A program made the translations under genes and the position numbers. The notes under the pieces are model-generated. The model had not been told where the DNA came from, searched no databases, and saw only the letters and a list, made by a program, of their open reading frames with translations. This document shows, piece after piece, positions 12,146 to 54,383 of a stretch of DNA of 64,000 bases. The DNA lies in contig CANJJI010000002.1 of the NCBI GenBank assembly GCA_947474545.1, forward strand, positions 3,623-67,622, read 5' to 3'. Numbering within the stretch: the stretch's first letter is position 1; the number at the start of each line of letters is the position of its first letter. Origin of the DNA: Beijerinckiaceae bacterium (GTDB lineage Bacteria; Pseudomonadota; Alphaproteobacteria; Rhizobiales; Beijerinckiaceae).

Positions 12146-13333
12146 TTATTCCGCTGCTTTGGTTTGCATGCCAGCATATTGTTTGTCTGTCAGTCCCTGC
12201 AGCGCCGGCAGAACCTCACTGGCGAACAGACGGATATTCCGTTCCGTCAGATCGCGCGGGAGCGTACCAAATTGCATGAGGCACAACAGATTCTGGAACC
12301 CTAGCATACGATGGGTTTCCGTGAACTGCCTGCGCACCGTATCCGGGCTGCCACAAACAATAATCCCCGCCTCGATCAGTGAATCCACCGTGTGCTCCTG
12401 GCCGCTCACTGAACGCTTGTGGCTGCGCATATTGGCAAGCGACTTCGGCGAGAGATAGCCCGGCGGAAACAGCATTTCAAATGGAAGCCGCAAAAGCCGG
12501 TTAAACAAAACTTCGATATGCGGCTTGGCTTCGTCGCGCGCCTTCTGATCGGTATCCGAGATATAAACAGGCGTCGACCATCCAATCTGGTCGGAACTGG
12601 CCGTGTAACCATACATGCGTTCAGCGCATTCGCGATAATAGTTCAGGAACCGCATCACAGATTGCGTTGGGCTGTAGGCCTGCAGATAGGTATACTTGCG
12701 CGAGGGATGCGCCGCCCATTCGATGGTTTCTGTCGAGCCCGTTGAGGGCGCCCAGATCGGCGGATGCGGCTGTTGATAGGGGCGTGGCCACGTGTTGACA
12801 TATTCAAAATGATAGAACTTGCCTTCGAACGAAAATGGCCCAGGCCTTGTCCATGCCTGCACAACAAGATCATGCGCTTCCTGAAACCGCGCATGTGAGA
12901 ACGCAGGATTGTTGCCGGTGGAAAAATATTCGGCCCCAATGCCTCGCACCATTCCGGAAATCAGTCGACCGCCGGTGATATTGTCGATCATCGAATGTTC
13001 TTCCGCCAGATTGAGCGGGTGCTCGCGCAGGCCGAATGCATTGCCGAGAATAGCGAGCTTAGCGGTCTTTGTCCTGCGCGCAAGCGCCGCTGCGGTGACA
13101 ACCGGAGAAGGCATCAGGCCATAAGCATTCTGATGATGCTCGTTGACGGAAATACCATCAAAGCCAAGTTCCGCTGCTAGCTCCAGTTCATCCAGGTAGC
13201 GATTGTAAAGTTCATGCCCGACCTTCGGATCATAATAGGTATTAGGCAGAACTACCCAGGCGGCCCGATGCTTCTCCATGAAGTTCATGTCCAGATTGGC
13301 ATAGGGCATGAGATGGAACGTGAAGACTTTCAT
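12146..13333 (-). CDS. LLM flavin-dependent monooxygenase
   Basis: VNEHHQNAYG, PSPVVTAAAL, GGRLISGMVRG, PYQQPHPPIW, CGSPDTV. Confidence 0.88.
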   Translation of the reverse strand: MKVFTFHLMPYANLDMNFMEKHRAAWVVLPNTYYDPKVGHELYNRYLDELELAAELGFDGISVNEHHQNAYGLMPSPVVTAAALARRTKTAKLAILGNAFGLREHPLNLAEEHSMIDNITGGRLISGMVRGIGAEYFSTGNNPAFSHARFQEAHDLVVQAWTRPGPFSFEGKFYHFEYVNTWPRPYQQPHPPIWAPSTGSTETIEWAAHPSRKYTYLQAYSPTQSVMRFLNYYRECAERMYGYTASSDQIGWSTPVYISDTDQKARDEAKPHIEVLFNRLLRLPFEMLFPPGYLSPKSLANMRSHKRSVSGQEHTVDSLIEAGIIVCGSPDTVRRQFTETHRMLGFQNLLCLMQFGTLPRDLTERNIRLFASEVLPALQGLTDKQYAGMQTKAAE

Positions 13334-23248: not shown

Positions 23249-24385
23249 TCAAGCCAGCGCAGGCACACCATCGCTTTCCCGTAAACCCATTTTGTGCAGC
23301 CGCGGCAAAACTTCCTGTGCAAAATACGGCAGTTCCAGCAGATAGTTCAGGAATGAAAAGCCGATGCCATCAAATCCCGCCCCGTGCAGCCGGGCCAGCT
23401 CATCGGCGACATCATCGGGCGTGCCGATAATATCGAAGCCCGATTGCCCATGCACCAGCGCACGCCGCATTTTGTCATAACCGGCCGGATCATCTTCACG
23501 CTTAACATCCTTTAGCGCCAACATATATTCGGCAGCGCCCCAGTCGGCTGTTTCCTCTGTCCAGTAATGCCAATAATCCCTTGCTTCCTTGCGCGTTGGA
23601 CGGCAAACTACCTGGCCGACTGTATAAACGCCAGTATCCTTGCCCAGCGCTTTGCCCGCTGCTTTCACCGTCGAAACTTCCTGCGCAGCCTCTTTCAGAT
23701 CGGGGAATCGGATCGCGGTGAAAAATGCATCGCAATTACGTAACGCATAGGCACGGCCAAGAGGCGAAGCCCCCGCGTTCATCATAAGCGGGCGGCTGCC
23801 GCCATAAGGTTTTGGTTTCAGCCGCAGCCCGCGTAACTTGAGATGCTTGCCAATGAAGTCGAACTCTTCTTCCGGGCCCCACATACGCAATATCGCGTCG
23901 ATCCATTCCTGACCATATTCATAGCGCAATTCGTTCGTCGCCTTTTGCTCGACGCCGAACATATTAAACTCGCTTTCGTTCCAGCCGATCACAATATTCA
24001 GCGCAAAACGGCCACGTCCAATAAGATCGGCCGTTACGATTTCCTTGGCCGCAAGCACCGGATTAAACAGCGGCGCATGAACGGTTGCGAAAACGGTAAT
24101 GCGTTTGGTTCGCGCCAGTTGCCCGGTCGCCCAGGTGATAGTTTCCATCGTCGTGCCCTGGTGATCAGTCTCGCCTCGATAACCACGCCAGCGCCCGATG
24201 GGCAGCATAAAATCAATACCCACCTGATCGGCAAGTTCGACAAGCTTCTCCGAAGAATCCCAATCTGCCAGCCAGCGCTCCGGCGCCTTCGTCATGGCGC
24301 GCCCGTTCGAGCAGTTTGAGCCGAACAGCCCAAGCTTGAACTTGTTGCCATTGTACATGGCAATGCGATCCTGCATCGGCGTCAT
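23249..24385 (-). CDS. LLM flavin-dependent monooxygenase (RutA/SsuD-like clade)
   Basis: FKLGLFGSN, GIDFMLPIGRW, GRFALNIVIGW, NAGASPLG, IIGTPDDVA. Confidence 0.87.
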   Translation of the reverse strand: MTPMQDRIAMYNGNKFKLGLFGSNCSNGRAMTKAPERWLADWDSSEKLVELADQVGIDFMLPIGRWRGYRGETDHQGTTMETITWATGQLARTKRITVFATVHAPLFNPVLAAKEIVTADLIGRGRFALNIVIGWNESEFNMFGVEQKATNELRYEYGQEWIDAILRMWGPEEEFDFIGKHLKLRGLRLKPKPYGGSRPLMMNAGASPLGRAYALRNCDAFFTAIRFPDLKEAAQEVSTVKAAGKALGKDTGVYTVGQVVCRPTRKEARDYWHYWTEETADWGAAEYMLALKDVKREDDPAGYDKMRRALVHGQSGFDIIGTPDDVADELARLHGAGFDGIGFSFLNYLLELPYFAQEVLPRLHKMGLRESDGVPALA

Positions 24386-26894: not shown

Positions 26895-27995
26895 ATGAAC
26901 GAACACGTCCGCCCACCACAATCCAGCAACCGCCTTCGCGTCATCGATTGCGACATTCATCCGCGTATTGATTCGCCGCTGGAAATGAAGCCCTTTATGG
27001 CGTCGCGTGCCTGGGACCTCTGGCAGACTTTTGGCACCCGCAACCGCCATGGCTTCGCCAAGGGACACCCCTATCCCAAATCCCAGCCCGACAATGGCAT
27101 GCGCCGCGATGCCTACCCGCCAGACGGAACCATGGCCGGATCCAGCCTTTCCTTCATGCAGCAACAATTGCTCGACCCCTATGACGTGGAATTCGGAGTC
27201 ATGAACCCGCTCTCTCCAAGTGGTCAGGGCGAGATGAACCCCGAACTATCTGCGTCCCTCGCTTGTGCCTCCAACGAATGGCAACTGGAAAAATGGGCGC
27301 GTCCGGAACCGCGCCTTAAAGCCTCCATTGTCGTACCCTACGAAGACCCTGCCGCTGCCGTCGCGGAAATCCGGCGCCGCGCGGGCGACAAGCATTTCTG
27401 CCAGGTGCTCATGATGAGCCGCACCAACGAAGCGCTGGGCCGCAAGAAATACTGGCCCATCTATGAGGCAGCGGTAGAAGCGGGCTTGCCGATCGGGATC
27501 CATGTCTTCGGCTACAGCGGTTGGGCCTCCACCAGCACAGGCTGGTGCTCCTATTATGTGGAAGAAATGACCGAGCACGCAGCCTCCTGCTCAGCCATGG
27601 TTACGTCCATGATCATGGAAGGCCTGTTCGAACATCTGCCGGAATTGAAAGTCGTGGTGATTGAATCCGGCTTTGCCTGGATTCCCTCGCTAGGCTGGCG
27701 GCTCGATAAAAACTGGAAGCGCCTGAAACAGGAAGTCCCGCATCTGCGCAAGGCGCCCTCCGAATATCTGCGCAAGCACATCTGGGTGACCACACAGCCG
27801 ATGGAAGAATCCGAGCGCCCGCGCGATGTTATGGACAATATGGACTGGATCGGCTGGGACAAAATCCTCTTCGCCAGCGATTATCCCCATTGGGATTTTG
27901 ACGATCCCTATTACGCCATTCCCCCCGTCTTCGGAGAGGAAAAACGCCAGATGATCTTTAATGGCAATGCGAAAAAAGTGTTTAACTTCGGATGA
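26895..27995 (+). CDS. Amidohydrolase-2 TIM-barrel metalloprotein; candidate dinuclear oxygenase subunit
   Basis: IDCDIHP, IGIHVFG, VIESG, FASDYPHWDFD. Confidence 0.8.
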   Translation: MNEHVRPPQSSNRLRVIDCDIHPRIDSPLEMKPFMASRAWDLWQTFGTRNRHGFAKGHPYPKSQPDNGMRRDAYPPDGTMAGSSLSFMQQQLLDPYDVEFGVMNPLSPSGQGEMNPELSASLACASNEWQLEKWARPEPRLKASIVVPYEDPAAAVAEIRRRAGDKHFCQVLMMSRTNEALGRKKYWPIYEAAVEAGLPIGIHVFGYSGWASTSTGWCSYYVEEMTEHAASCSAMVTSMIMEGLFEHLPELKVVVIESGFAWIPSLGWRLDKNWKRLKQEVPHLRKAPSEYLRKHIWVTTQPMEESERPRDVMDNMDWIGWDKILFASDYPHWDFDDPYYAIPPVFGEEKRQMIFNGNAKKVFNFG

Positions 27996-37537: not shown

Positions 37538-38536
37538 ATGATCAAGCTGGGCCTCTGGACACCTCTGCCGCACACCATCAGGCCGGAGCCTGAGATTGAT
37601 CTTGCGCTCAGCGATCTGAAGACGCGGGGCCAGGGGCTCGCCCAGGACCGTTCATTTCAGTTTGCGCTGAAAGCTGTAAAAGAAGCGGAGGATATGGGCT
37701 TTGACATTACGCTTGTTGCAGAGCGGCTCGTTGCAGCAGACCTCGAAGCCTGGGTCGTTTCCTCCGCACTGGCTGTCCTGACAGCCAAAATCGAGATCAT
37801 GACAGCCGTTCATCCCGGCATCATCAATCCGCAACTGGCAGCGAAAATGGGTGCGTCGCTGGATCGTCTGACAGGCGGGCGTTTTGCGATCAACGTGGTG
37901 CCGGGCCGCCGCACGCATGAGTTCGATCTCTATGGCAACGGCGGCTGGGTCGAAAAGGGCCAGGATCACTACAAGCGTGTGGACGAATTCATCCGTGTCT
38001 TGAAATCCATGTGGACCGAAGATGATTTCTCGTTTGATGGTCAGTTTTATCACGCCACAAAAGGCTCGATGCTGACCAAATCAATACGCGAACCTCACCC
38101 TCCTATCTATGCGGCCAGCGGCGCAGATGAAGGGATGGAAATCATCGCCCGCGAATGCGCTCTCTGGTTTGTTTCATATGGCGACGGCATCGATGCGTAT
38201 GAAGAAAATGTCGCCCATATTGCGCGTGATATAACCATCATGAAAACTCGGGCAGCACGGTACGATCGCGATATAGGTTTTGGTATATCGACGCTGATCG
38301 CCTGTTCGGATGACCCATCAGCGCTAATCGAAGATGCCCGGCGGTTTGCGCAGGATCCCCTGCACAATGTGCCCATCAAGGCGCTAGGCGCGGGTCTAAT
38401 CGGAACGCCGCAGCTCATAGCGGACCGCATACGCCGCTATGAGGATATGGGGATGAGCTTGCTGATGCTGCAATTCCATCCGTTCATGGATGGACTGCGC
38501 ACCTTTGCCGACCGCGTCATGCCGCTTCTGAAATAG
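37538..38536 (+). CDS. LLM flavin-dependent monooxygenase (SsuD-like)
   Basis: EDMGFD, IMTAVHPG, GGRFAINVV, PHPPIYAA, LIGTP. Confidence 0.87.
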   Translation: MIKLGLWTPLPHTIRPEPEIDLALSDLKTRGQGLAQDRSFQFALKAVKEAEDMGFDITLVAERLVAADLEAWVVSSALAVLTAKIEIMTAVHPGIINPQLAAKMGASLDRLTGGRFAINVVPGRRTHEFDLYGNGGWVEKGQDHYKRVDEFIRVLKSMWTEDDFSFDGQFYHATKGSMLTKSIREPHPPIYAASGADEGMEIIARECALWFVSYGDGIDAYEENVAHIARDITIMKTRAARYDRDIGFGISTLIACSDDPSALIEDARRFAQDPLHNVPIKALGAGLIGTPQLIADRIRRYEDMGMSLLMLQFHPFMDGLRTFADRVMPLLK

Positions 38537-40154: not shown

Positions 40155-41321
40155 ATGCTTACCAGCACTGACCGCATTGTCACAACCCATGCTGGCGCCT
40201 TGCCGCGTTCCGCAGAATTGCGGCAGCTCGTTTTTGCCCGCGCCGCCGGAAGCGCCCATGACTCTGCTGAACTCAAGGCAAAACTTGCTGCGGAAACCGC
40301 TGCCTCAGTAGACAAGCAATTGGCGATTGGCATTGATAGTATCAATGACGGCGAGGTAGGCAAGACCAATTTCACCAGCTACTGCGCCGAGCGCATCTCG
40401 GGCCATCAGGAACGGATTTATGTTCATGGCAAAAGTCCGCAACCCCTCAACATCGCGGCGCGCGATGCACGCAAATACAAGGCCTATTTTGAATCGGGCA
40501 AGGGTGGATTCGCCAATCTGAATCTACCCAGAGCCCAGAGCTTTTGCGTTGAACCCTTGCACTTCACCGGACAGGCGGCTCTGGCCGAAGACATCGCTCA
40601 TTTCAAAGCTGCGCTGACGGGCAAGAATGCGCCGGAAGCCTATTTGCCGGCCAATACGCCGGGCACAATGGAGCACTGGCTCTATAATGATTATTATAAA
40701 ACCACGGAAGAATTTCTGTTCGCTATCGCCGAATGCCTGCGCGAGGAATATGAAGCCATCGTGAATGCAGGCTTTCTGCTGCAAATTGACGATCCAGATC
40801 TGCCTGATGGCTGGCTGATGTTTACTGACATGACGGTTGCCGAATATCAGACATATGCGCGCCTGCGGATTGATGCGCTCAATCACGCCCTGCGTAATAT
40901 CCCGCCGGAAAAAGTTCGTCTGCACGTGTGCTGGGGTTCGTTTCATGGCCCGCACAATGAGGACATTCCCCTCAGGGATATTGCGAATTTGATCTTTTCC
41001 GTCCGCGCAAAAGCCTTCTCGATCGAAGCTTCGAATCCGGCGCATGAACATGAGTGGCGTGTATTTGAGGACGTAAGACTGCCCGAAGGCTCAGTCCTGA
41101 TACCTGGCGTTGTCGGACATTGCACAGACTTTATCGAGCATCCCGAATTGGTTGCGCAACGCATCGTCCGTTACGCCAATCTGGTGGGAAAAGAAAACGT
41201 GATTGCCGGCACCGATTGCGGCCTTGCGCCACGCGTGGGGCATCCCAGCATCGTCTGGGGCAAGCTGGAAGCGCTGGCCGCTGGTGCGAAGATTGCTACA
41301 ATGCAGCTGTGGGGGCGGTGA
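40155..41321 (+). CDS. Cobalamin-independent methionine synthase II family (single-barrel core-MetE-like) Zn protein
   Basis: QIDDP, LHVCWG (HxC), SIE, PGVV, TDCG Zn-ligand pattern; no N-terminal MetE barrel. Confidence 0.85.
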   Translation: MLTSTDRIVTTHAGALPRSAELRQLVFARAAGSAHDSAELKAKLAAETAASVDKQLAIGIDSINDGEVGKTNFTSYCAERISGHQERIYVHGKSPQPLNIAARDARKYKAYFESGKGGFANLNLPRAQSFCVEPLHFTGQAALAEDIAHFKAALTGKNAPEAYLPANTPGTMEHWLYNDYYKTTEEFLFAIAECLREEYEAIVNAGFLLQIDDPDLPDGWLMFTDMTVAEYQTYARLRIDALNHALRNIPPEKVRLHVCWGSFHGPHNEDIPLRDIANLIFSVRAKAFSIEASNPAHEHEWRVFEDVRLPEGSVLIPGVVGHCTDFIEHPELVAQRIVRYANLVGKENVIAGTDCGLAPRVGHPSIVWGKLEALAAGAKIATMQLWGR

Positions 41322-41434
41322 GGGGTAAACACTCAAAACATTGTTTTTGCGAATAAATAATGCCAGACTAAGGCTGCTTGTATAGAACGTGCTCTGCGTG
41401 CAGGCCCCCGGAGCATTAAGCAATGGAGAATGAC

Positions 41435-41716
41435 ATGGCGCTTAGCAGATTCATCATCGAACGTGATATCCCTGCAGTTGGAACATTTGACCGTGAGGCG
41501 CTCCGTGGCGCTGCCGCCAAGTCAAACTCTGTCCTGAAGGAACTCGGTCCCGATATTCAATGGGTCGAGAGCTATGTCGCTGACAACAAGACGTTCTGTG
41601 TGTACCTCGCAAAAGATGAAGCCATTATCAAGAAACATGCTGAAATCAGCGGATTTCCGGCGACAAAAATAACCGAAGTCAAAAAGATGATCGATCCGAC
41701 GACTGCAGCAGCTTAA
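41435..41716 (+). CDS. DUF4242 family protein
   Basis: FIIERDIP, IQWVESYV, KTFCVYLA, HAEISGFPA; start moved to MALSR. Confidence 0.85.
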   Translation: MALSRFIIERDIPAVGTFDREALRGAAAKSNSVLKELGPDIQWVESYVADNKTFCVYLAKDEAIIKKHAEISGFPATKITEVKKMIDPTTAAA

Positions 41717-41797: not shown

Positions 41798-42208
41798 TCA
41801 AATTTCAAGGACAACGTAATCATTTTCAACAGTCACCGGAAACGTCTCTGCCACAAGCTCTTCCGCCAATTCGCCGCCGTGCTCCACATGCACATCGTAA
41901 AGCCGCACACGCATCTTTTGTGGATCGCATTGCGAACGGCCCGTGCGCACGTCAAATTCCCAGCCGTGCCAGGGGCAGCGGATAATCTCGCCATCGCGCG
42001 TCCATTCATAGGCCCCAGGCTCTTTGGCGATCACCAGGCCCGTCAGCTTGCCTGCGCAGAGCGAGCCGCCTTCATGCGGGCAGCGGTCATTCAGCGCAAA
42101 AAATTCGCCACGCACGTTGAACACGGTTATCTTGCGCTCTTCGGCTTCCACCAGTCGGCGTGTGCCCGGCGGAAAATCGGCGACGGCGGCTACCACATGT
42201 TTAGCCAT
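41798..42208 (-). CDS. Rieske [2Fe-2S] ferredoxin
   Basis: CPH...CPWHGWEFD; start moved to MAKHV, 5 nt after the amidohydrolase stop. Confidence 0.9.
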   Translation of the reverse strand: MAKHVVAAVADFPPGTRRLVEAEERKITVFNVRGEFFALNDRCPHEGGSLCAGKLTGLVIAKEPGAYEWTRDGEIIRCPWHGWEFDVRTGRSQCDPQKMRVRLYDVHVEHGGELAEELVAETFPVTVENDYVVLEI

Positions 42209-42212
42209 GGCG

Positions 42213-43247
42213 TCAGCCTCCCAGCCGTGAATAGGTGGCCAGCGGATTATCACGCATGATTTTTTTATGCAGCGCCGTGGGTATGCCCTTGGGCATGACA
42301 TCGTCGCCATCAAACTGCCAGTGCGGAAAATCCGATGCGTAAAGCAGGAAATCATCCGACTGGATCTGGTCGATGACTTTCTCGATCACCGACAAATCTT
42401 CCGGCCCGTCCAGCGGCTGCACGGTCATGCGCACATGATCGCGGATAATGTCCCCAGGCGGCCTGTCGATCCAGGGGACTTCACGCCGCACGCCGCGCCA
42501 GAATTTTGACAATCGCCAGATGAAACCAGGCAGCCATGTCACTCCGGATTCAATCAGCACTACTTTCAGGCTGGGAAACTTGACGAACACGCCTTCAGTC
42601 ACAAGGCTTGCGAGTTGCGCCTGAAATCCGAGCGATTGCGCGGAATAATCCTCCACATAATATGTGGTCCAGCCTAGCGACGTCACGGGATGGCGATAGG
42701 ACGAGCCAGCATGTATGCCGATGGGCAGCCCGTGCTTTTCCGCGGCTCGAAAAATCGGCCAGAACTGCCGCTTGCCCAACGGCGCTTCGCCATTGGCGAG
42801 CACCAGCACCTGAACAAACTGGCGATTGGGCGCGAGCCGCTCGATCTCATCCACGCAGGCCTCGATATCCTGCAACGGCAGGATGATCGAGGACGCAAGC
42901 CGCGCGTCCTTCGCCAGCCATTCCTGCGCAATCCAGTCGTTGAGCGCGCGGGTGAAGGCAATCGCCATATCGGTATTGTGAACAAGCTGGACGCCGTAAT
43001 TGCAATTAAGGATCGCGCGCTCCGCGCCCCATTTGTCAAACACCTGCGAGGTCAGGCCAGCAAAATCCAGCCCTGCCTTTTTCAGATCGGGCCGCGCGGT
43101 CAGCGGTGAGTTCGGCGGATAGGAAATGGATTCCAGCGAGGCAATGCCGCGATCGACAACCTGCTCCTGCCAATTGGCGTCCAGCCAGGGCATGAGGACT
43201 TTCGTCCCGGGAACAGCGGGATGAACGTCGCAATCAATAGGCTTCAA
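42213..43247 (-). CDS. Amidohydrolase-2 TIM-barrel protein; candidate partner subunit of a dinuclear oxygenase
   Basis: IDCDVHP, IGIHAG, LIESG, YASDFPHWQFD; TTG start with GGGGAG RBS. Confidence 0.8.
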   Translation of the reverse strand: MKPIDCDVHPAVPGTKVLMPWLDANWQEQVVDRGIASLESISYPPNSPLTARPDLKKAGLDFAGLTSQVFDKWGAERAILNCNYGVQLVHNTDMAIAFTRALNDWIAQEWLAKDARLASSIILPLQDIEACVDEIERLAPNRQFVQVLVLANGEAPLGKRQFWPIFRAAEKHGLPIGIHAGSSYRHPVTSLGWTTYYVEDYSAQSLGFQAQLASLVTEGVFVKFPSLKVVLIESGVTWLPGFIWRLSKFWRGVRREVPWIDRPPGDIIRDHVRMTVQPLDGPEDLSVIEKVIDQIQSDDFLLYASDFPHWQFDGDDVMPKGIPTALHKKIMRDNPLATYSRLGG

Positions 43248-43286
43248 GGTTTCGGCTCCCCGGATGTTTTGTTGCGCGCACCATAA

Positions 43287-43700
43287 TGGAAACGCCCGGC
43301 AATGCCCAAGGCAGAAATGTCGCGGGGAGGTCTCTCAACCCGTGGTTCCCAAGCAGCAGAAATAACCTGCCTGACTGGAGCGCGGGCCTCTGGCCCGCTG
43401 TTGCAAAAGATGTGGAACTGGAGCGCCACGCTCCCTGCGCGAATAGCTCCGCCGTGCGCACGCACGCGAGACATGAGGGCCCCGGGACGCTGGTTCGCCG
43501 TGAATGGGGTAGTAGGGTGCTGGCTTGCCAGCGTCCCGTAGTTCCGGCTTTTTTCGGTTCCTGCCAAACCACTTGCCGCTGCAGTCATAGTGCTGGGCGT
43601 TGGGAATCCAGAAAGGCCCTTGCGTTCCTTTCCATCCTGGCAGGCCGCTCCGGGATGCTTGCTCCCGGTAAGAGCAAGTCGCAGAGGCCGTGCCCCGCCC
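43287..43700 (+). ncRNA. Candidate large structured RNA (unassigned)
   Basis: No credible ORF. Helices 43291-43301/43591-43601, 43309-43314/43367-43372, 43321-43326/43339-43344, 43382-43398, 43420-43434, 43483-43493/43528-43538, 43658-43678; the imperfect pairs I checked are G-U only on the + strand. Confidence 0.4.
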
Positions 43701-43749
43701 GCCAATATGACCGCTCATGATCGGCCCCTCATTGCGCAGGGATGAGCGC

Positions 43750-43778
43750 TTTTAGAACAACATAGGAACATTTGTCAA
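43750..43778 (-). promoter_or_regulatory. Sigma70-like promoter overlapped by an alphaproteobacterial LexA (SOS) box
   Basis: TTGACA (43778-43773), 17-nt spacer, CTAAAA (43755-43750); GAAC-aacatag-GAAC at 43755-43769 matches GTTC-N7-GTTC. Confidence 0.65.
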
Positions 43779-43897
43779 GAAGAATTTTCTACATATTATG
43801 AAATATTTCCTATCAAACGGGAGAATGGCCGGCCCCGCCCGTTGACTTGAACACCTCGCTGGATGAACGTTCGCTCGCAGACTTCAGGGAGGGAAAA

Positions 43898-44920
43898 TTG
43901 GTCAAAATTGCCAACATCATGCACGGCGCAGGCGCCGCGCTCGCCATTTCGCTGATCGCAGCCAATCCGCTCGCCGCCCAATCGGCCGCCTGGGACAATG
44001 TCGTCGCGGAAGCGAAAAAAGAGGGCAAGCTCACCATCTACAATGGCACCAATTATCGCGTGGTGCGCATGGTGGCGGCGGAATTCACCAAAAAATACGG
44101 CATCCGCGTCGATGTGCTGGACGCCCGCACCACCGAGATCCGCGAGCGCATCCGCGTCGAGCAGGCCACAAACCGCACCGTCGCGAGCCTGAGTTTCAGC
44201 GGCTGGACAACCCTGTCCACCCAGCAGGCCGAAGGCGTCTGGCGTAAAGTGGACGCAATTCCCAACGTCGCGAAATTGCAGGATCCCCTTAAATCCAATG
44301 GCATGCTTGTGCCCGCAGTCACTGGCAGTTTCGCCATCGCGATCAACACCAGTCTCGTCAAGCCGGAAGACGAACCCAAAAGCTGGCACGACCTTGCCGA
44401 CCCCAAATGGAAAGGCAAAATCCTCTCCGATGATCCACGCGCGGCCGGCGCAGGCAATGTCTGGTTTGAAGCGACCTACAATGCCTTCGGCCCGGGCTTT
44501 CATGAAAAGATCAACGCACAGGGTCCCGTGTTCAGCCGCGTGTTTCCTGAAAACCAGCGACGGCTGGCGCGTGGCGAATTTGCGCTTTACATTCCCTTCG
44601 CGATTTCCGAAATCGCGGGCCTGCGCGGCCTGCCCGTAAAAGCTATCATCCCCGTGGAAGGCGCGCCCTATGTCCCCTTTGCCTGGGGCATGCTGCACGA
44701 TGCGCCCGCGCCCAATGCAGGCCACCTCTTCATCAACTACAGCCTGGAGGACGAGGCGCAGGCCGTCTTCGCCAGCGAGGGCTTCACTCCCGCCATCCCC
44801 GCCGCCCGCGAAAAAGTACCCGCGGACGTCAAGCCGCTTGTCAACGCCAAACTGCTGGGTACAACCACGGTCGGCAAGCTCGATGAAATGGTGAAGGCCG
44901 CACAGGCTCTGTATAAATAA
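43898..44920 (+). CDS. Orphan ABC substrate-binding protein (Fe3+/polyamine/thiamine SBP-like family)
   Basis: AKKEGKLTIY, PKSWHDLADPKWKGKI, ARGE; TTG start after AGGGAGG RBS. Confidence 0.85.
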   Translation: MVKIANIMHGAGAALAISLIAANPLAAQSAAWDNVVAEAKKEGKLTIYNGTNYRVVRMVAAEFTKKYGIRVDVLDARTTEIRERIRVEQATNRTVASLSFSGWTTLSTQQAEGVWRKVDAIPNVAKLQDPLKSNGMLVPAVTGSFAIAINTSLVKPEDEPKSWHDLADPKWKGKILSDDPRAAGAGNVWFEATYNAFGPGFHEKINAQGPVFSRVFPENQRRLARGEFALYIPFAISEIAGLRGLPVKAIIPVEGAPYVPFAWGMLHDAPAPNAGHLFINYSLEDEAQAVFASEGFTPAIPAAREKVPADVKPLVNAKLLGTTTVGKLDEMVKAAQALYK

Positions 44921-44947: not shown

Positions 44948-45946
44948 ATGATCGATATCTACACCCACATTTTTCCTGATAAATTCTATGAGGAACTCAC
45001 CAAGACCTCGCCGAAACTCGGCAATATCGGCCAGCGACTGCGCGGCGTGAAACCGCTGTTCGATCTCGATATCCGCTTTCGCGACATGGACAAGATCGGC
45101 CCGGACTACCGGCAGGTCATTTCGCTTCCCAACCCGCCCATCGAGGACATTGCCTCGCCTGCGGACGGCGCACGTCTCGCCATGGTCGCCAACGACGCCA
45201 TGGCCGAACTGTGTGCGAAGCATCCGGACCGTTTCCCCGCCTTTGCCGCCGCCTGCTGCATGACCGACGTGGACGCGTCTCTGAAAGAAATCGACCGCGC
45301 TATCAACCAGCTCGGCGCGCGCGGTGTGCAGACATTTACGAACATCAAGGGCAAACCGCTCGACCTGCCGGAATTCGAACCCTTCTTCGCGGCGATGGCC
45401 AGGCACGATCTACCCATCTGGATGCATCCGGCCCGCACCGCGGAAGATTTTGCCGATTACACCACCGAGAAAAAATCCCGTTACGAAATGTGGTGGTGTT
45501 TCGGCTGGCCCTATGAAACCTCTGTCGCCATGTCGCGTATCGTTTTCAATGGCACTTATGATCGCTATCCTAATCTCAGCATCATCACCCACCATTGCGG
45601 CGGCATGATCCCCTATTACGACGGCCGCGTTGGCCCCGGTCTCAATGTGCTGGGCTCACGCACCATGGATGAGGATTATTCTGGTGTGCTGAAAGGCCTG
45701 AGGAAGCCGCATCTGGAATATTTCAAGCAATTCTACGGCGACACCGCCATGTTTGGCGCCAGCAACGGCCTGCACAGCGGCTATAAATTCTTCGGCGCAG
45801 ACCACGTAGTTTTCTCCACGGATTCGCCGCTGGGACCGGTGGCTGAATCCCTGAAAGCCATCGACGCGCTGGAGCTTTCACCCGCAGACAAGAAGAAAGT
45901 GATGTCCGGCAATGCCGAGCGGATCTTGAAGCTGAAGGCAAGCTGA
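44948..45946 (+). CDS. Amidohydrolase-2 family protein (decarboxylase/hydratase-like clade)
   Basis: IDIYTHI, PIWMHP, WPYETS, THHCGGMIP, FSTDSP. Confidence 0.82.
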   Translation: MIDIYTHIFPDKFYEELTKTSPKLGNIGQRLRGVKPLFDLDIRFRDMDKIGPDYRQVISLPNPPIEDIASPADGARLAMVANDAMAELCAKHPDRFPAFAAACCMTDVDASLKEIDRAINQLGARGVQTFTNIKGKPLDLPEFEPFFAAMARHDLPIWMHPARTAEDFADYTTEKKSRYEMWWCFGWPYETSVAMSRIVFNGTYDRYPNLSIITHHCGGMIPYYDGRVGPGLNVLGSRTMDEDYSGVLKGLRKPHLEYFKQFYGDTAMFGASNGLHSGYKFFGADHVVFSTDSPLGPVAESLKAIDALELSPADKKKVMSGNAERILKLKAS

Positions 45947-46180: not shown

Positions 46181-48520
46181 ATGAACGAAGTCGTAAACCC
46201 GCACAAGTCGCAGCAACATTCCCGCCCGTGGAATGGCCGATATGAAGACGCAGCGCTGGTCAGCGGCCTCGGGAAATTCACCGCCGATGTGCAAGATTCT
46301 GCGCTTTCGGCGTTTTTCGTGCGCTCCCCCCATGCCCGCGCCAAAATCAAAAGTATTGATGTGTCCGCAGCCAAGGCCGCTAGCGGCGTCGTCGCGGTGC
46401 TGACGGCCAAGGATATGGAAGCAGCAGGCCTCGGCTCGGTCTCCGGCTCTATCCCCTTCCCCGGCCGCGATGGCAAAATGCCCGTGAGCCCCTTCCGTCC
46501 GGCGCTGGCAGGCACGCTGGTGATGCATGTCGGCGAGGCCGTGGCGCTCGTCATTGCAAAGACCGCCCGCGCCGCCGAAGACGCCGGTGATCTCGTAAAT
46601 GTCGATTACGACGTGCTCGAACCCGTCATCGATCTGGACAAGGCCAAATCCGGCAACGTGCAATTGTGGCCTGACGCTCCCGGCAACCTGACACTCGATT
46701 GGACGTCGCCCACCGATCCTGATGGCGCGAAACGCAACGCAACGGATGCCGCCTTCAAGGCTGCAAAACATCATGTCGCCATCGACGTCATGAACCAGCG
46801 CATTTCCGCCGTTGCGATGGAGCCGCGCGCCGCGCTTGCAAGTTATGACAAGGACAGCGACAGCTACACTATCCACACCGGCACCCAGGGCACGATGGGC
46901 GTGAAAGCGCAAATCGCCATGGCCATGAAAGTGGACATGCCGAAAATCCGCGTGCTCTCGACAGATGTCGGTGGCGGCTTTGGCATGAAGGCTTCAATCT
47001 ATGCCGAATATCCGGCGTTGCTCGCTGCAGCCAAGATCACCGGCCAGAAGGTGCAATGGACCGCCACGCGCACGGAATCCTTCCTCACCGACAATCAGGC
47101 CCGCGATTCCCGCTGGCATGTCGAACTCGCGTTCGACGATGACGGCAAATTCCGCGCGTTGAAAATAGACGGCGACCAGAATGTCGGCGCCTACATGACC
47201 GGCGTGGCCGTGCTGATCCCCACCATTCACATCGCTGGCTGCATGCCGAGCGTCTATGACATCCCCAATGTTGTCGTGGATTCCCGCTGCTATTTCTCCA
47301 ACACTGTGCCCACCGGCCCCTATCGCGGCGCCGGCCGTCCAGAAGCGAACTTCCTGCTGGAACGCGTGATTGACGCTGCCGCGAAAAAGCTCGGCATGGA
47401 CCCGGCCGAAATTCGCATCCGCAATCTCATCCAGCCCTCGCAAATGCCCTATCCGACGACGCTCGGCCCTGCCTACGACAGCGGCGACTTCCCCATGATT
47501 TTTGAATCGGCAATGAAAGCTGCCGATTACAAGGGCTTTGCCGCCCGCAAGGAAGCCTCGAAAAAGAATGGCAAGTTGCGCGGCATCGGCGTCTGCGGCT
47601 TCCTGGAAATTTCGGGTGGCCATTATCATGAGCCCGCGCGCCTGCTCTTCAAGGGCGGCAAGATCGAAGTCGGCATCGGCCCCGTGCCACAGGGACAGGG
47701 CCATATCACCGTCTTCAAGCAGATGGTGTCCAAGCGCCTTGGTATTTCCGACGATCAGATCGAAGTCCAATTCGGCGACAGTGCGAAGGATGTTCCCGGC
47801 TTTGGCGCGGTGGCTTCCCGCACGGCGATGCTGACCGGCAGCGCCGTCGCTATCGGCGTCGATAAGATGCTCGAAAAAGCCTATGCGGTGGCGCAAACCC
47901 TGCTGCAGGCTGGTGAAGGCGAAGTCAGCTATCACGATGGCCTCTTCGAGCGCAAAGGCACGGGGCAGACGATTGGCTTGTTCGATGTCGCCGCCCGTGC
48001 GGAAGAAATGAAAAAACAGGGCGCAATAGCGGAAAGCCTCGACACCGAATCAAACGCCGATACGGGCCCCTCCTTCCCCAACGGCTGTCACATTGCCGAA
48101 GTGGAGATTGATCCCGGCACCGGTGAGACTGTCGTTGTCGCCTATACCGCCGTTGGCGATACCGGCATTGTTCTCAACGAGCGTATCGTCGAAGGACAGG
48201 TGCAGGGTGGCGTCGTGCAGGGCATTGGTCAGGCGCTGGGCGAATACAGCCAGTACGACAACGACAGCGGCCAGTCTGTCGCAGCCAGTTTCATGGATTA
48301 CACCATGCCGCGCGCCCACAACGTGCCGATGCTGAACGTCATCCACCACCCCGTGCCCTGCAAGACAAACTATGTCGGAGCCAAAGGCACTGGGGAAGCC
48401 GGCACAACCGCCGCGCCGCCGGTCATTGTCAGCGCAGTAGAAAACGCGATTTCAGACAAATTCCTGAACCTGCAGATGCCCGTGACGCCGCAGAAAGTGT
48501 GGAAAGCGTTGCAGGGCTGA
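46181..48520 (+). CDS. Xanthine dehydrogenase/CoxL-family molybdopterin large subunit (form II-like)
   Basis: VRSPHARA, DVGGGFGMK, PYRGAGRPEA, GQGH, FPNGCH.AEVEID, KGTGEAG. Confidence 0.9.
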   Translation: MNEVVNPHKSQQHSRPWNGRYEDAALVSGLGKFTADVQDSALSAFFVRSPHARAKIKSIDVSAAKAASGVVAVLTAKDMEAAGLGSVSGSIPFPGRDGKMPVSPFRPALAGTLVMHVGEAVALVIAKTARAAEDAGDLVNVDYDVLEPVIDLDKAKSGNVQLWPDAPGNLTLDWTSPTDPDGAKRNATDAAFKAAKHHVAIDVMNQRISAVAMEPRAALASYDKDSDSYTIHTGTQGTMGVKAQIAMAMKVDMPKIRVLSTDVGGGFGMKASIYAEYPALLAAAKITGQKVQWTATRTESFLTDNQARDSRWHVELAFDDDGKFRALKIDGDQNVGAYMTGVAVLIPTIHIAGCMPSVYDIPNVVVDSRCYFSNTVPTGPYRGAGRPEANFLLERVIDAAAKKLGMDPAEIRIRNLIQPSQMPYPTTLGPAYDSGDFPMIFESAMKAADYKGFAARKEASKKNGKLRGIGVCGFLEISGGHYHEPARLLFKGGKIEVGIGPVPQGQGHITVFKQMVSKRLGISDDQIEVQFGDSAKDVPGFGAVASRTAMLTGSAVAIGVDKMLEKAYAVAQTLLQAGEGEVSYHDGLFERKGTGQTIGLFDVAARAEEMKKQGAIAESLDTESNADTGPSFPNGCHIAEVEIDPGTGETVVVAYTAVGDTGIVLNERIVEGQVQGGVVQGIGQALGEYSQYDNDSGQSVAASFMDYTMPRAHNVPMLNVIHHPVPCKTNYVGAKGTGEAGTTAAPPVIVSAVENAISDKFLNLQMPVTPQKVWKALQG

Positions 48521-48637: not shown

Positions 48638-50245
48638 CTACTTCCGCATCAGGTGATAACTCAAATCTCCCGGATTGGTCAGGTCAGGCACCGTCCAGCC
48701 GTTGAGATCATATTCGCTCATGCATTGCTCGGCGAAACCCTTGAAGCGATCAGCATCGCCCGACGCCATCGCCCCGAACAGACAATAGCGGCGAATTTCT
48801 TCGGTTGAGCCCCCGTAGTTGATTTCATAAAGCTCATGCCGCCCGCCAAATTCCGTACCGAGCGTATCCCACAACAGCTTCATCAACTTCACGCGTTCTT
48901 CAGCCTTGTAGCCATTGGAGCCGCGCAGATATTTGTCGAGATAGGGTCTGATTTCTTCATTCTGGAAATCGCGCGCATGAGAATTAAGATAAATCAGGCC
49001 CGAAGCCACAGTCTGCTCGATGATATATTTCACCTTGGTGTAGGCCATGGTGGCGATGATGTGATAGGCGCTGCCCGGATTCATATTCGGCAGAACAAAA
49101 TCTTTGATCCACGGTTTGGGATCCCTGACCATCGCATCGCTCAACGCCCAGAACAGATTGCGCCAGGCGATGACCTCTCCAACATTCGCCTGCACCCCGC
49201 GAAAATCCTTCGTGCCTGAGGCTTCCACCGCCTTGAGCAACAACCCGGCAATAAAGTCGAGTTTGACAGCCAGACGTGTGCACCCATGCACGACAAAGCG
49301 TGGCAGAAAACCCGTGCGCGGGAAGAAATTATTCGCCTTCTCCACATCGCCATAAACAAACACGTTCTCCCAGGGGATGAGCACCTTGTCCATGATGAAA
49401 ACCGCGTCATTTTCATCGACGCGGCTCGACAGCGGATAATCGAAAGGCGAGCCCATTGCAGTAGATGTCATCTCATAGGATGTGCGGCAGATGAATTTTA
49501 CGCCAGGCGCATTGGTCGGCACCATGAACACGGTGGCGAATTTCTTGTCCTGCACAGGCAGCAGGCCGTGATGCGCAACAAAGGTGTAATTGGTCAGCAC
49601 AGAACCCGTCGCGACCACCTTTGCGCCAGATACAATGAGGCCAGCATCGGTCTCGCGTTCCACATGGCAACAGACATCCGACACTTCATTCGGCGGCTTA
49701 TCGCGATCAACCGGTGGATGAATGATCGCGTGATTCACGAAAGGAACGCGCTCCTGGCTATATTTATACCAGCGCTTCGCATTGGCTTCATAAGGTGCAT
49801 AGAATTCGGAATTCGCGCCAAGCGTCGCCAGAAACGCGGCCTTGTAATCGGGCGCGCGGCCCATCCAGCCATAGGAAATCTTCGCCCATTCGGCGATCGC
49901 GTTACGGCTGGCGAGCAAATCCTCCATCGACTTGGGCGCCTTGAAAAAGGCATGGGTCATGCCGCCCGAGCCGGTGTCCGTCGGCACCATGATCCCCTTG
50001 GATTTCTCCGGATCATGCATCGCGTCGTAAAGACGCGCGACCATGCGGGCCGTGTTGCGGAAGGCCGGATGAACAGTGACATCGGCGACCTTCTCGCCAT
50101 AGATATAAACACAGCGTCCATCGCGCAGCGAAGCCAGATATTCATCGCCGGTTTGTGGCTTTGTGTGGGAGCCTTGTCCGGTGCTTGCCGGCAACGTGTT
50201 GAAAGCTGCACGGGCGGCGAGATCGGCGTCTGAAAGTTCTGTCAT
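48638..50245 (-). CDS. hpaB: HpaB/PheA1-type two-component flavin monooxygenase, oxygenase component
   Basis: [62 protein letters not shown]. Confidence 0.88.
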
Positions 50246-50392: not shown

Positions 50393-51907
50393 CTATTGCG
50401 CCACGTGAACAATCCTGAGCTGCGGCAGGCCCCAACAGGAAACGCCCATGTCACGGGCCATCGCAGCCAGTCCCTCGGTTTCTATATATCCCTTGTAGCT
50501 GTAGCAGGGAAAATTGAGCCCGTCCCGATGGAGGTTCGCCCGCACCAGCAAGGCCGTCCCGCCTACAGAATCGACCTGTGTCAGCGGCTGCGCCTCAAAA
50601 CTGTCGAGATAACGCCGTCCCGCGCCTTCCGGTGGCTGATGCAGGCCATCCAGCATGTAACGGGGGTTTAAAGTGTCGCTTTCGCGCCGCTCAAAACAGA
50701 AAGTGTTCAAGTCAAATGTCGCCCCGTTTGGAAGCACGCAGTGCGGCACAACGATATCCTTGCCTGTCTCCAGCAAGGCCTTCAGTAGATTCCCCGGATA
50801 TGTCTCCAGATCCCCGTCGAGCCAGAGCACCCATTCCTCTTCACGCAGCGCGTTCATCAGCAATCTGTTGCGCGCCCGTGCGATTGCGGCGCGCCTGACC
50901 AATTGAATTTCAGGCTTCCATCGGGGTTCCGGGAGAATGATCCCCTGATTCCATTGGGTCAAAACAATGCGATGAAATCGCGAATCATGAAGTTGAGCGA
51001 TGGACTGGAGCGCGTCGAATGTTCCGTCTGTGCTATCCCCTTCAAGAATGCCAAGGCTCAATTTCTCCGGCGGATAATCCAGCCGTTCAAGCAGATCAAA
51101 ATATCTGGTGAGATGCTGCTTGCAATTCTTCATGGGGGTAAGAACAAGCACCTCAGGCAAAGCATCATTCTGCGGGGCGAGTGTTATGGCCGAAGTTTTC
51201 GCCCCCAGCGCCAGGTCTCCGGACGCCTCGGCCCGGAACCAGTTTCCTTCCCAATAATGGCACCCGAAAGCCTGCCTTGTCTTTGAAGTAAAAAAATCAA
51301 CATCCAGATGTCTGCCTTCCCAGCATTCATCCTTGTCGAGAGGATAAAGCACGTCCTGCGCCAATATGCTGATGTCCCTGGACGGGAAACTGTCAAGCGC
51401 CCGGGTAAAAGCGAACGGCCCGGTTCTATCCAGCACGTCCGTCGATTGGCGGCTCTTCCTTAATTGGCTGAACAAATGCGTCCAGAACGGATGCAGTTTC
51501 TCAGAGGCTATGAAGGCATTGCATACTATCCGGGAGAGGCCGGACTGCGTGAATGCAATCACTTTTGCAGAATGCGATTCTGGTTCAAGGCCTGCCACGA
51601 ATCGCTTTCCCTCGAGCAATTCATCGACAGGCCTCAGGCATTCATAGTCGAGGTCCGCGTAGATACCGCCAAACCTGTACAAGATCAGATATCGCGCCAG
51701 ATCGACACGGCAGATTGAATCTGCATACCCATGGTAGATGGTGGACCATTCCGGAAACGACGAAGCAAGCAGACCTTCTATGAGTTCGTCGGTCCACAAC
51801 CTGTATTCGTAACCCCGATTATGGCGGCGCCAGCTATCGCGCACGTCCTGCTGCCTTGGCTTCAGCTGCTCATTTTTCCAGATCTGATGAATTATTTTCG
51901 GTATCAT
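50393..51907 (-). CDS. Two-domain glycosyltransferase: GT32 (OCH1-like) fused to Anp1/Mnn9 (GT62)-like domain
   Basis: N-terminal IPKIIHQIWK, RVDLARYLILYRFGGIYADLD, TGPFAFT; C-terminal VLVLTPMKN, LDYP, RR..IARARN.LL, WVLWLDGD, DIVVPHC, FDLN, DSVGGTALLV, IETEGLA.MA. Confidence 0.75.
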   Translation of the reverse strand: MIPKIIHQIWKNEQLKPRQQDVRDSWRRHNRGYEYRLWTDELIEGLLASSFPEWSTIYHGYADSICRVDLARYLILYRFGGIYADLDYECLRPVDELLEGKRFVAGLEPESHSAKVIAFTQSGLSRIVCNAFIASEKLHPFWTHLFSQLRKSRQSTDVLDRTGPFAFTRALDSFPSRDISILAQDVLYPLDKDECWEGRHLDVDFFTSKTRQAFGCHYWEGNWFRAEASGDLALGAKTSAITLAPQNDALPEVLVLTPMKNCKQHLTRYFDLLERLDYPPEKLSLGILEGDSTDGTFDALQSIAQLHDSRFHRIVLTQWNQGIILPEPRWKPEIQLVRRAAIARARNRLLMNALREEEWVLWLDGDLETYPGNLLKALLETGKDIVVPHCVLPNGATFDLNTFCFERRESDTLNPRYMLDGLHQPPEGAGRRYLDSFEAQPLTQVDSVGGTALLVRANLHRDGLNFPCYSYKGYIETEGLAAMARDMGVSCWGLPQLRIVHVAQ

Positions 51908-53113: not shown

Positions 53114-53599
53114 ATGGAAGTCAAACTTACAGTGAACGGCAAGCCGGTCACGGCAACAGTCGAACCCCGCACACTCCTTGTGGAGCTGATCCGCGAACAG
53201 CTGCGCCTTACCGGCACGCACGTTGGCTGCGACACAACCCAGTGCGGCTGCTGCGTCATCCATTTAAATGGCGAAGCCGTGAAGTCCTGCACCATCCTGG
53301 CCGCCCAATGCAACGGCAAGGACGTCTTGACCATCGAGGGCCTTGCCAAGCCGGACGGCACGCTGCACCCCATGCAGGCAGCATTCCGTGAGCATCACGG
53401 GTTGCAATGCGGGTTCTGCACACCGGGCATGGTGATGATGGGCGTCGATATCGCCCGCCGCTTGCCGGGAGCTGATGAAAAGACTGTCCGTCAGGAGCTG
53501 GAAGGCAATATCTGCCGCTGCACCGGCTATCAGGGCATCGTTCAGGCCATTCTCTCCGTGGTGAACCCCGCAGCTGTGAAGGATCATCATCATGCGTAA
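53114..53599 (+). CDS. CoxS/CutS-like 2x[2Fe-2S] small subunit
   Basis: GCDTTQCGCC, QCGFCTPG, GNICRCTGY; start moved to MEVKL. Confidence 0.92.
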   Translation: MEVKLTVNGKPVTATVEPRTLLVELIREQLRLTGTHVGCDTTQCGCCVIHLNGEAVKSCTILAAQCNGKDVLTIEGLAKPDGTLHPMQAAFREHHGLQCGFCTPGMVMMGVDIARRLPGADEKTVRQELEGNICRCTGYQGIVQAILSVVNPAAVKDHHHA

Positions 53600-54383
53600 T
53601 TTCGAATATCACATTGCCACTGATGTGAACGCGGCTGCAGCCTTGCTGAAAGCCAAGGAAGACGGCAAGCTGATGGCGGGCGGCATGACCTTGCTGCCGA
53701 CCCTGAAACAGCGCCTCGCCGCCCCGTCCGATGTCATCGACATCGGCTCGATCAGCGCACTCAAGGGCATCAGGAAAGATGGCGACAGCATCGTCATAGG
53801 CGCGATGACCCGGCATTTCGACGTCGCCCATTCCGATGTGGTGAAATCCGCTATTCCGGCGCTGGCCTCGCTGGCAGGCCAGATCGGCGATCCCGCTGTG
53901 CGCCACCGCGGCACCATCGGCGGCTCCATCGCCAACGCAGATCCCGCCGCTGATTATCCCGGCGGCTGCATGGGCCTCGGCGCAACCATCGTCACCAACA
54001 AGCGCCAGATCAAGGCCGATGATTTCTTCACCGGCCTGTTCGAAACCGCGCTTGAGAGCGACGAGATCGTCACCGAAGTGCGCTTCCCCATTCCCCAGAA
54101 AGCCGCCTATCAGAAGTTCCGCCATCCCGCGTCCGGCTATGCCGTTGTTGGTGTAATGGTCGCGAAATTCGCTGATGGCGTGCGCGTAGGCGTGACCGGT
54201 TCTGGCCCGAATGCCTTCCGCGCCAAGGATTTTGAAGCCGCGCTATCAAAAGATTTTTCCGCCAAGGCGATTGAGAACGTGAACCTCAAGGCCGATGGTC
54301 TGCTGAGCGACATTCACTTCAGCGCCGAATATCGCGCCCATGTGACAGGTGTGCTGGCGCGCCGGGCTGTTGCTGCGGCCTGA
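53592..54383 (+). CDS. CoxM/CutM-like FAD-binding medium subunit
   Basis: AGGMTLLP.LKQRLA, VRHRGTIGGS, SDIHFSAEYR. Confidence 0.92.
   Translation: MRNFEYHIATDVNAAAALLKAKEDGKLMAGGMTLLPTLKQRLAAPSDVIDIGSISALKGIRKDGDSIVIGAMTRHFDVAHSDVVKSAIPALASLAGQIGDPAVRHRGTIGGSIANADPAADYPGGCMGLGATIVTNKRQIKADDFFTGLFETALESDEIVTEVRFPIPQKAAYQKFRHPASGYAVVGVMVAKFADGVRVGVTGSGPNAFRAKDFEAALSKDFSAKAIENVNLKADGLLSDIHFSAEYRAHVTGVLARRAVAAA

Follow-up and report, generated by a model that had tools for sequence, protein, structure and literature searches.

The window analysed here, a stretch of 64,000 nucleotides from a Beijerinckiaceae bacterium (contig CANJJI010000002.1, positions 3,623 to 67,622), carries on its reverse strand the gene of an AibH1-type subunit (42213..43247, 344 amino acids) and, directly downstream of it, the gene of a Rieske [2Fe-2S] ferredoxin (41798..42208, 136 amino acids). 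A third gene, at 26895..27995 of the forward strand, encodes an AibH2-type protein of 366 amino acids, the predicted catalytic, dinuclear subunit. It is probable that the three proteins constitute a hydroxylase of the type of AibH1H2, the 2-aminoisobutyrate monooxygenase of Rhodococcus wratislaviensis, with the AibH1-type protein as the auxiliary subunit. AibH1H2 is counted among the amidohydrolase-related dinuclear oxygenases (AROs). An earlier note on this DNA, made from its letters alone, had already proposed that the gene pair encodes the partner subunit and the electron carrier of a two-subunit hydroxylase. In what follows, the AibH1-type and AibH2-type genes and proteins are named H1-type and H2-type.

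The H1-type open reading frame starts with TTG, nine bases after GGGGAG, and the stop TGA occupies positions 42215..42213, while the ATG of the Rieske gene lies at 42208. The gap between the genes is thus 4 nucleotides and not 5, as the earlier note had it; the described arrangement, an amidohydrolase-fold gene just upstream of a Rieske gene, is correct. Since the gap is this short and the Shine-Dalgarno sequence of the Rieske gene (GGGAGG) is placed inside the end of the upstream gene, the Rieske gene is probably translationally coupled to the H1-type gene, and the layout identifies the two as a putative two-gene operon. The H1-type protein matches PF04909 (Amidohydro_2) over residues 4-339 (2.6e-35). 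The ferredoxin matches the Pfam families Rieske (PF00355, 4.2e-17), Rieske_2 and Rieske_4, its translation contains the cluster motif C43-P-H45 ... C78-P-W-H81, and in the PDB it comes closest to the soluble ferredoxins that serve biphenyl, carbazole and toluene dioxygenases.

The H1-type protein belongs to the AibH1 clade. In a search of all PDB sequences its best match is AibH1 (6M1W/8FUL chain A; 2.4e-77, 263.8 bits); the homomeric oxygenases 8SM7 and SfbO (8SM6) reach 231 and 214 bits, and AibH2, with 187.5 bits, stands below all three. The matches are reciprocal, as the best PDB match of the 26895 protein is AibH2 (6m1w_B; 7.2e-81, 275.4 bits) and AibH1 comes last among the oxygenases (177.8 bits). 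In a neighbour-joining tree, which was rooted with a decarboxylase-like PF04909 protein of the window and tested with 100 bootstraps, the clade of the H1-type protein joins AibH1 in 100/100 replicates and the clade of the 26895 protein joins AibH2 in 58/100; SfbO, 8SM7, 8SM8 and 8SM9 fall outside the AibH1 grouping. The predicted fold agrees with the phylogeny. An AlphaFold2 model built on 28 homologs (mean pLDDT 79.7, pTM 0.85) was compared with the PDB by Foldseek, and the first three ranks are AibH1 chains (TM score 0.90), followed by homomeric AROs and AibH2. The proposed AibH1H2-type relationship is therefore borne out by reciprocal best matches, tree and fold; the likeness to PtmU3, which had been named together with it, is only remote (1e-13). 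No NCBIfam model naming either ARO-type protein was found.

The feature that sets the H1-type protein apart is its last metal motif. AROs are defined by an N-terminal D-x-H and a C-terminal D-x-P-H-x-[D/E] motif, and the last acid of the latter binds, or hydrogen-bonds water on, the second, solvent-exposed metal (Liu et al., 2026; PMC13154177). The H1-type protein has the PF04909 TIM-barrel fold, and its first beta strand carries the D-x-H motif as D7-V8-H9, which does not vary among 28 aligned homologs. At the C-terminus the translation reads S-D306-F-P-H309-W-Q311-F, which confirms the DFPHWQ read earlier and departs from the ARO motif, as does AibH1 (DYPHKH). By alignment, D7, H9, H179, E233, D306 and H309 correspond to Asp24, His26, His201, Glu255, Asp328 and His331 of AibH1, all of which AibH1 keeps, whereas it has no acid where AibH2 has Asp342 (Hibi et al., 2021; PMC7782822). 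All five Site-0 ligands (D7, H9, H179, E233 and D306) are likewise kept in the H1-type protein and the acid is absent; Gln311 aligns with a His of AibH1 and with Asp342 of AibH2. It was reported that this acid is conserved in binuclear enzymes only, that AibH1 binds a single metal, and that AibH1 is non-catalytic yet essential, as strains lacking any one of AibH1, AibH2, the Rieske ferredoxin AibG or the reductase AibF yield zero product (Hibi et al., 2021; PMC7782822). The missing acid that the earlier note had pointed out is thus the same feature that explains the single metal and the non-catalytic state of AibH1 (Hibi et al., PMC7782822). Site 0 of AibH1 is closed off sterically and probably has a structural role, and the activity of the AibH2 variant D342A is diminished (Powell et al., 2023; PMC10401708).

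The substitution is not a peculiarity of one genome. Gln is found at position 311 in 118 of the 120 closest homologs (63-96% identity), and the ligand positions are invariant among them. Among representatives of 50%-identity clusters (P0241-P0300), the nearest ones, with 38-49% identity, read DYPHWHY, DFPHDHG, DHPHWQF, DHPHAHH, DLPHRHG and similar variants; His, Gln, Asn or Arg replaces the last acid of the motif in the nearest relatives and gamma4 is mostly non-aromatic; Trp at gamma4 is kept only by the window's branch and a few others, and the canonical DYPHWDF occurs only among the more distant representatives. As the acid position holds His, Gln or Asn across the nearest relatives, H1-type proteins without the acid form a broad clade, and the window's protein belongs to a Gln-bearing branch of it. 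Because its C-terminal motif departs from D-x-P-H-x-[D/E], the protein is not a canonical catalytic ARO and would be left out of the motif-based census of ~17,000 sequences. A lysine, K248, is invariant at a likely AibH1-AibH2 contact position (published residues K282 and Y287); the offset in this alignment was guessed, and no conclusion was drawn from it.

The candidate catalytic partner is the 26895 protein, whose existence the earlier note had stated correctly. It is a PF04909 protein with both motifs complete (D-I-H and D-Y-P-H-W-D-F), and a tblastn search of the window returned exactly one gene of each kind, H1-like, H2-like and Rieske. Its gamma1 residue is Ile, gamma2 is Asn (by alignment with the Thr of SfbO) and gamma4 is Trp. 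This combination agrees with the criteria published for AROs of the low-potential class that uses Mn, which leads to the prediction of a low-potential Mn/Fe-type dinuclear cofactor in this protein. For each of the three proteins of the window, H1-type, H2-type and Rieske, the nearest relative is encoded by the same Logan contig, L089 (identities of 73, 77 and 70%, respectively), where the H2-type gene converges on the Rieske-H1 pair with a gap of 30 nucleotides. It follows that the 26895 gene is the ortholog of the gene that abuts the pair in L089, and in the lineage of the window the catalytic gene has moved ~14 kb away from the H1-Rieske pair. The neighbourhood of the 26895 gene is the same in L090 (H2 83% identity).

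The organisation of the three genes was mapped in 80 related loci taken from species-representative genomes, all of them metagenome-assembled genomes (MAGs) of Hyphomicrobiales (Beijerinckiaceae, Xanthobacteraceae and others). In 75 of the 80 loci the Rieske gene is directly downstream of the H1-like gene or one gene from it, so that the pairing is not a chance one. This linkage bears on the view that the H1-type protein is a PF04909 enzyme of the ordinary, non-redox sort (decarboxylase, hydratase or hydrolase) and that the ferredoxin serves another oxygenase. PF04909 is indeed common to decarboxylases, a decarboxylase-like PF04909 gene is located nearby (44948-45946), and the strict ARO motif is absent, which would suit such a view; against the match of 1e-77 to AibH1, however, those to decarboxylases are weak (1e-9 to 1e-13), the D-x-H motif, invariant here, is reportedly lacking in those hydrolases and decarboxylases of the amidohydrolase fold that have been characterised (PMC13154177), and the neighbourhood in the window contains no gene of a Rieske-type oxygenase alpha subunit which the ferredoxin might serve. 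Considering the constancy of the gene pair as well, a non-redox enzyme is very improbable.

The H2-type gene belongs to the same linkage group in a large part of the loci. Thirty-three loci have the order H1-H2-Rieske in one direction, the same as aibH1-aibH2-aibG. The order is H2-H1-Rieske in L014. In the window's own clade, which includes L089, a bare H1-H2-Rieske operon lies between alaS and recA in L095, and in L092-L094 (H2 69%, H1 64% identity) the compact convergent module described above for L089 recurs amid housekeeping genes, together with a divergent solute-binding protein gene. In the mapped loci the H2-type protein reads DYPHWD in 35 of 35 cases and the H1-type protein always lacks the acid. 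The linkage of the three genes has been kept despite at least three independent rearrangements, which argues for a functional unit, and the adjacency of the orthologs in the 33 loci, L014, L089 and L092-L094 adds neighbourhood evidence to the earlier partner-subunit reading.

The separation of the genes in the window could also mean that the H1-Rieske pair is a non-functional evolutionary remnant, left behind after the H2-type gene had moved away. Apart from the 13.8 kb that now lie between the genes, little recommends this explanation: both frames are intact and preceded by good ribosome-binding sites, homologs of 63-96% identity show no variation at any of the ligand positions, and L009-L013, with 71-85% identity, still have the H1-Rieske pair in the same split arrangement. 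A remnant is hardly credible.

There are nevertheless several observations that weigh against an H1-type protein working solely as the auxiliary subunit of the 26895 protein. The H2-type gene, besides its distance of 13.8 kb from the Rieske gene, is on the opposite strand and apparently monocistronic, and in the window, in L089 and in L092-L094 the gene coupled with that of the ferredoxin is of the H1 type and not of the H2 type. The H1-Rieske pair is without an H2-type gene within 10 kb in 42 of the 80 loci, most of which are not scattered and form one large Xanthobacteraceae clade. That the distance matrices of H1 and H2 are correlated (r = 0.89) would also be expected from shared species phylogeny alone, and this mirror-tree result shows orthology and co-inheritance, not physical interaction. 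On the residue level, the aromatic gamma4 (W310) and gamma5 (F312) are kept in the clade of the window, unlike in AibH1 (DYPHKHH); aromatic residues at these positions were linked to a low-potential cofactor and to pi-stacking or docking with the Rieske ferredoxin (Liu et al., 2026; PMC13154177). Gln in place of the acid can still give a hydrogen bond to a metal-bound water. Moreover, the search for a ferredoxin reductase gene was negative both in the window, where Pfam was run on most open reading frames of at least 200 amino acids, and among the genes called on the source contig.

Coupling to the Rieske gene, the retained docking residues, the remaining hydrogen-bonding capacity of Gln, the invariance of all six primary ligands in the Gln-type proteins and the 42 loci without an H2-type gene, largely one clade with the pair in a catabolic operon of its own, are what would be expected if the Gln-type protein were itself a working oxygenase (a homo-oligomer with a modified one- or two-metal site) or a redox-active subunit for electron entry, with the 26895 protein as a separate ARO. 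Such a role is considered rather unlikely. The loss of the acid is common to AibH1 and to the whole surrounding superclade, with His, Gln or Asn in its place; the acid is conserved only in binuclear enzymes, and AibH1, AibG and AibF without AibH2 give no product (Hibi et al., PMC7782822), while AibH2 D342A loses activity (PMC10401708). In about half of the loci the orthologs of the H2-type gene adjoin the pair, and the arrangements in which they do so are of three independent kinds. In the genomes with only the H1-Rieske pair an H2-type gene could be located further away, a situation of which the window itself, with its distant partner gene, is an example. The role as partner subunit and electron carrier of a two-subunit hydroxylase is thus supported, but given the large sister clade with H1-Rieske only, the H1-type protein may not be an obligate partner in the family as a whole. 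Since the docking aromatics are kept, the H1-type gene is the one coupled with the Rieske gene and the Xanthobacteraceae clade is devoid of H2-type genes within 10 kb, a Gln-type subunit that is not inert is allowed for: the Gln-type AibH1-like proteins might, as a rather unlikely alternative, dock the ferredoxin and pass its electrons to the catalytic subunit, or be stand-alone oxygenases with a modified metal site. If that were true, the enigmatic AibH1 class would acquire a function, and the published ARO motif would miss a whole functional branch.

The clades of related loci differ in their further gene content. In the Xanthobacteraceae clade (~33 loci: L019, L024, L027-L030, L035, L037, L039-L049 and others), genes for hydantoinase/oxoprolinase A and B follow the H1-Rieske pair and UbiD-like and FAD-monooxygenase genes precede it, with zero AibH2-like genes within 10 kb. 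An SHMT-like gene was found 3-4.5 kb downstream in 21 H1-H2-Rieske loci (L025, L031-L034, L036, L082-L088 and others) and, among the related loci, only in that clade. It recalls aibC, the SHMT-like decarboxylase gene of the Rhodococcus aib cluster, and by this analogy the substrate may be an amino acid in that clade. Three long proteins, P0137 (624 amino acids), P0229 (561) and P0151 (475), with H1-like and H2-like halves or an internal duplication, were considered as natural H1-H2 fusions, that is, as Rosetta-stone evidence, and were rejected and not used, because they lack either the C-terminal motif in one half or the D-x-H at the N-terminus of the other half; most likely, they are chimeras of assembly or gene calling.

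For the AibH1H2-type hydroxylase that is preferred here, a mechanism can be outlined from what is known of the family. It is proposed that the H1-type protein pairs with the 26895 protein to form an (alpha-beta)2 hydroxylase. The H1-type subunit would hold one buried metal, would be non-catalytic and would stabilise the active-site loop of its partner; Gln311 would replace the Asp of the second sphere, the residue responsible for organising the solvent-exposed second metal. The single metal and the non-catalytic role are predicted from this replacement and from the analogy with AibH1. The Mn/Fe-type cofactor of the 26895 subunit would be reduced by the Rieske ferredoxin, which would supply electrons one at a time, and the reduced cofactor would activate O2 for the C-H hydroxylation of a small molecule. 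An NAD(P)H:ferredoxin reductase would be supplied from elsewhere than the window. The only [2Fe-2S]/FAD pair of the window (53114-54383) consists of CoxS/CoxM-type subunits, which are components of a molybdenum hydroxylase, and a dedicated reductase of the AibF type (FMN/[2Fe-2S]) is missing from the compact modules L092-L095 as well. As neither the window nor these modules encode it, the reductase must be encoded elsewhere.

Upstream of the H1-type gene, an unusually long divergent intergenic region of ~650 bp (43248..43897) presumably contains the promoter and regulatory sequences of the H1-Rieske operon and of a gene for a periplasmic solute-binding protein (SBP; 43898..44920, forward strand). 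A promoter scan of this region gave one sigma-70-like site, on the forward strand at 43772-43799, which is a consensus-level match only; a terminator scan of the locus likewise gave consensus-level matches only. An Rfam search of the operon and the 650-bp upstream region returned zero family matches. No RNA runs were found for the locus; its sequence is present only in DNA runs of lake-water metagenomes, the source of this lineage. The SBP matches the Pfam families SBP_bac_8/6/11/1 and has weak NCBIfam similarity to PhnS, the 2-aminoethylphosphonate binding protein (55 bits, far below the cutoff). No permease or ATPase gene lies beside it. A divergent SBP gene (56% identity) is the one that flanks the compact H2/Rieske/H1 module in L092-L094, and it is also present in L009. 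The SBP may be the uptake receptor for the substrate of the proposed hydroxylase, and may import it.

The gene that follows at 44948-45946 (forward strand) encodes a third PF04909 protein, 332 amino acids long and of the non-redox kind, whose best PDB matches are the uncharacterised 3IJ6 and the 5-carboxyvanillate decarboxylase LigW. It is syntenic with the H1-type gene in L009-L013 and L089, and on the strength of this synteny it may act in the same pathway as the H1-type protein. Next to it, at 46181-48520 (forward strand), lies the gene for the large, molybdenum-cofactor (MoCo) subunit of a molybdenum hydroxylase of the xanthine/CO-dehydrogenase family; the genes for its CoxS-like [2Fe-2S] and CoxM-like FAD subunits (53114-54383, forward strand) are 4.6 kb away from it, and this is the second enzyme with dispersed genes in the window. 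The neighbours conserved in the clade of the window are the SBP, the decarboxylase-like PF04909 protein, the large MoCo hydroxylase subunit and an alpha/beta hydrolase, which do no more than hint at the catabolism of a small polar or N-heteroaromatic carboxylate. PicB, of the four-component 6-hydroxypicolinate monooxygenase, was considered as an ARO-type system that would explain the MoCo hydroxylase and the decarboxylase and was rejected, because this enzyme belongs to the classical Rieske ring-hydroxylating oxygenases.

The stretch that separates the Rieske gene from that of the alpha/beta hydrolase contains genes for a small SCO4226-like (nickel-responsive) protein (41423-41716, forward strand) and for a MetE-like protein of the cobalamin-independent methionine synthase family (40155-41321, forward strand). 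Both are absent from the close relative L009 and therefore look like an insertion. The SBP, decarboxylase-like, MoCo hydroxylase, alpha/beta hydrolase and MetE-like genes around the operon are not the aib set (aibD1, aibE, aibC and aibT). Further away, two flavin monooxygenases of the HpaB family (988-2454, forward strand; 48638-50245, reverse strand), four luciferase-like monooxygenases (7823-8881, 12146-13333, 23249-24385 and 37538-38536) and several binding proteins of the TctC and branched-chain types are encoded. A window so dense in oxygenases suggests a catabolic island of a freshwater Hyphomicrobiales genome. The gene at 50393-51907 (reverse strand) encodes a 504-amino-acid glycosyltransferase with a DXD sugar-binding region and an Anp1 domain (1.7e-43). 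The Anp1 family is known from the mannan polymerase of yeast and is unusual in a bacterium.

Since 2024, the occurrence of a PF04909 protein together with a Rieske ferredoxin has served as a published criterion for ARO discovery, so the system of the window is recognised as one of a known kind and not a new kind. The role of the AibH1 subunit is described as elusive in the ARO literature, and no heteromeric ARO besides AibH1H2 is mentioned in the ARO literature cited here. What appears modestly new, judged from the sequences compared, is that H1-type subunits are numerous and conserved in Alphaproteobacteria and are missed by the motif-based census. They represent a broad conserved clade, at least in Hyphomicrobiales, which invariably has Gln, His or Asn at the position of the second-sphere acid, is usually linked to H2-type and Rieske genes, is invisible to the D-x-P-H-x-[D/E] motif and carries the database label 'amidohydrolase'. 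The window offers a second, distant system for probing the role of the auxiliary subunit, and H1-type and Rieske genes would mark an O2-dependent hydroxylation step in freshwater and soil alphaproteobacteria. It is also a lesson for annotation that the gene of the catalytic partner may be many kilobases off.

Among known systems, the closest one is the Rhodococcus wratislaviensis monooxygenase, composed of AibH1H2, AibG (Rieske) and AibF (reductase), with structures available (PDB 6M1W, 8FUL-8FUO); AibH1 is its alpha' subunit. The H1-type protein shares 37% identity with AibH1, belongs to the same fold and clade, keeps the Site-0 ligands and lacks the acid equivalent to Asp342; in both cases there are also genes for an H2-type paralog and for a small Rieske ferredoxin. 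The differences concern the residue at the acid position (Gln in the window's protein, His in AibH1), gamma4 and gamma5 (W and F instead of K and H), the H2-type gene 13.8 kb away on the other strand, and the vicinity of the operon, which is free of an AibF-type reductase, an amino-acid permease and the aib catabolic genes. The hosts differ as well, AibH1H2 being from an actinobacterium and the system of the window from an alphaproteobacterium (a freshwater Hyphomicrobiales MAG lineage). With the homomeric low-potential AROs SfbO (8SM6), D3EI84 (8SM7), B6JH23 (8SM8) and W7L2Y2 (8SM9), the H1-type protein has in common the PF04909 TIM barrel, the D-x-H motif, 32-34% identity, a hydrophobic gamma1 (Val), aromatic gamma4 and gamma5 residues and an adjoining Rieske ferredoxin. 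These four proteins, however, are homo-oligomeric and catalytic with a complete D-x-P-H-x-D motif, whereas the H1-type protein has Gln at the last position and stands with AibH1 in the tree. The high-potential diiron AROs PtmU3 (6OMP) and DitZ (8UYR) resemble it in superfamily fold and general ligand set, but the similarity is remote (1e-13 and 1e-8, respectively; TM score 0.78), and these single-subunit enzymes of natural-product and diterpenoid pathways have a hydrophilic gamma1 residue and no Rieske partner.

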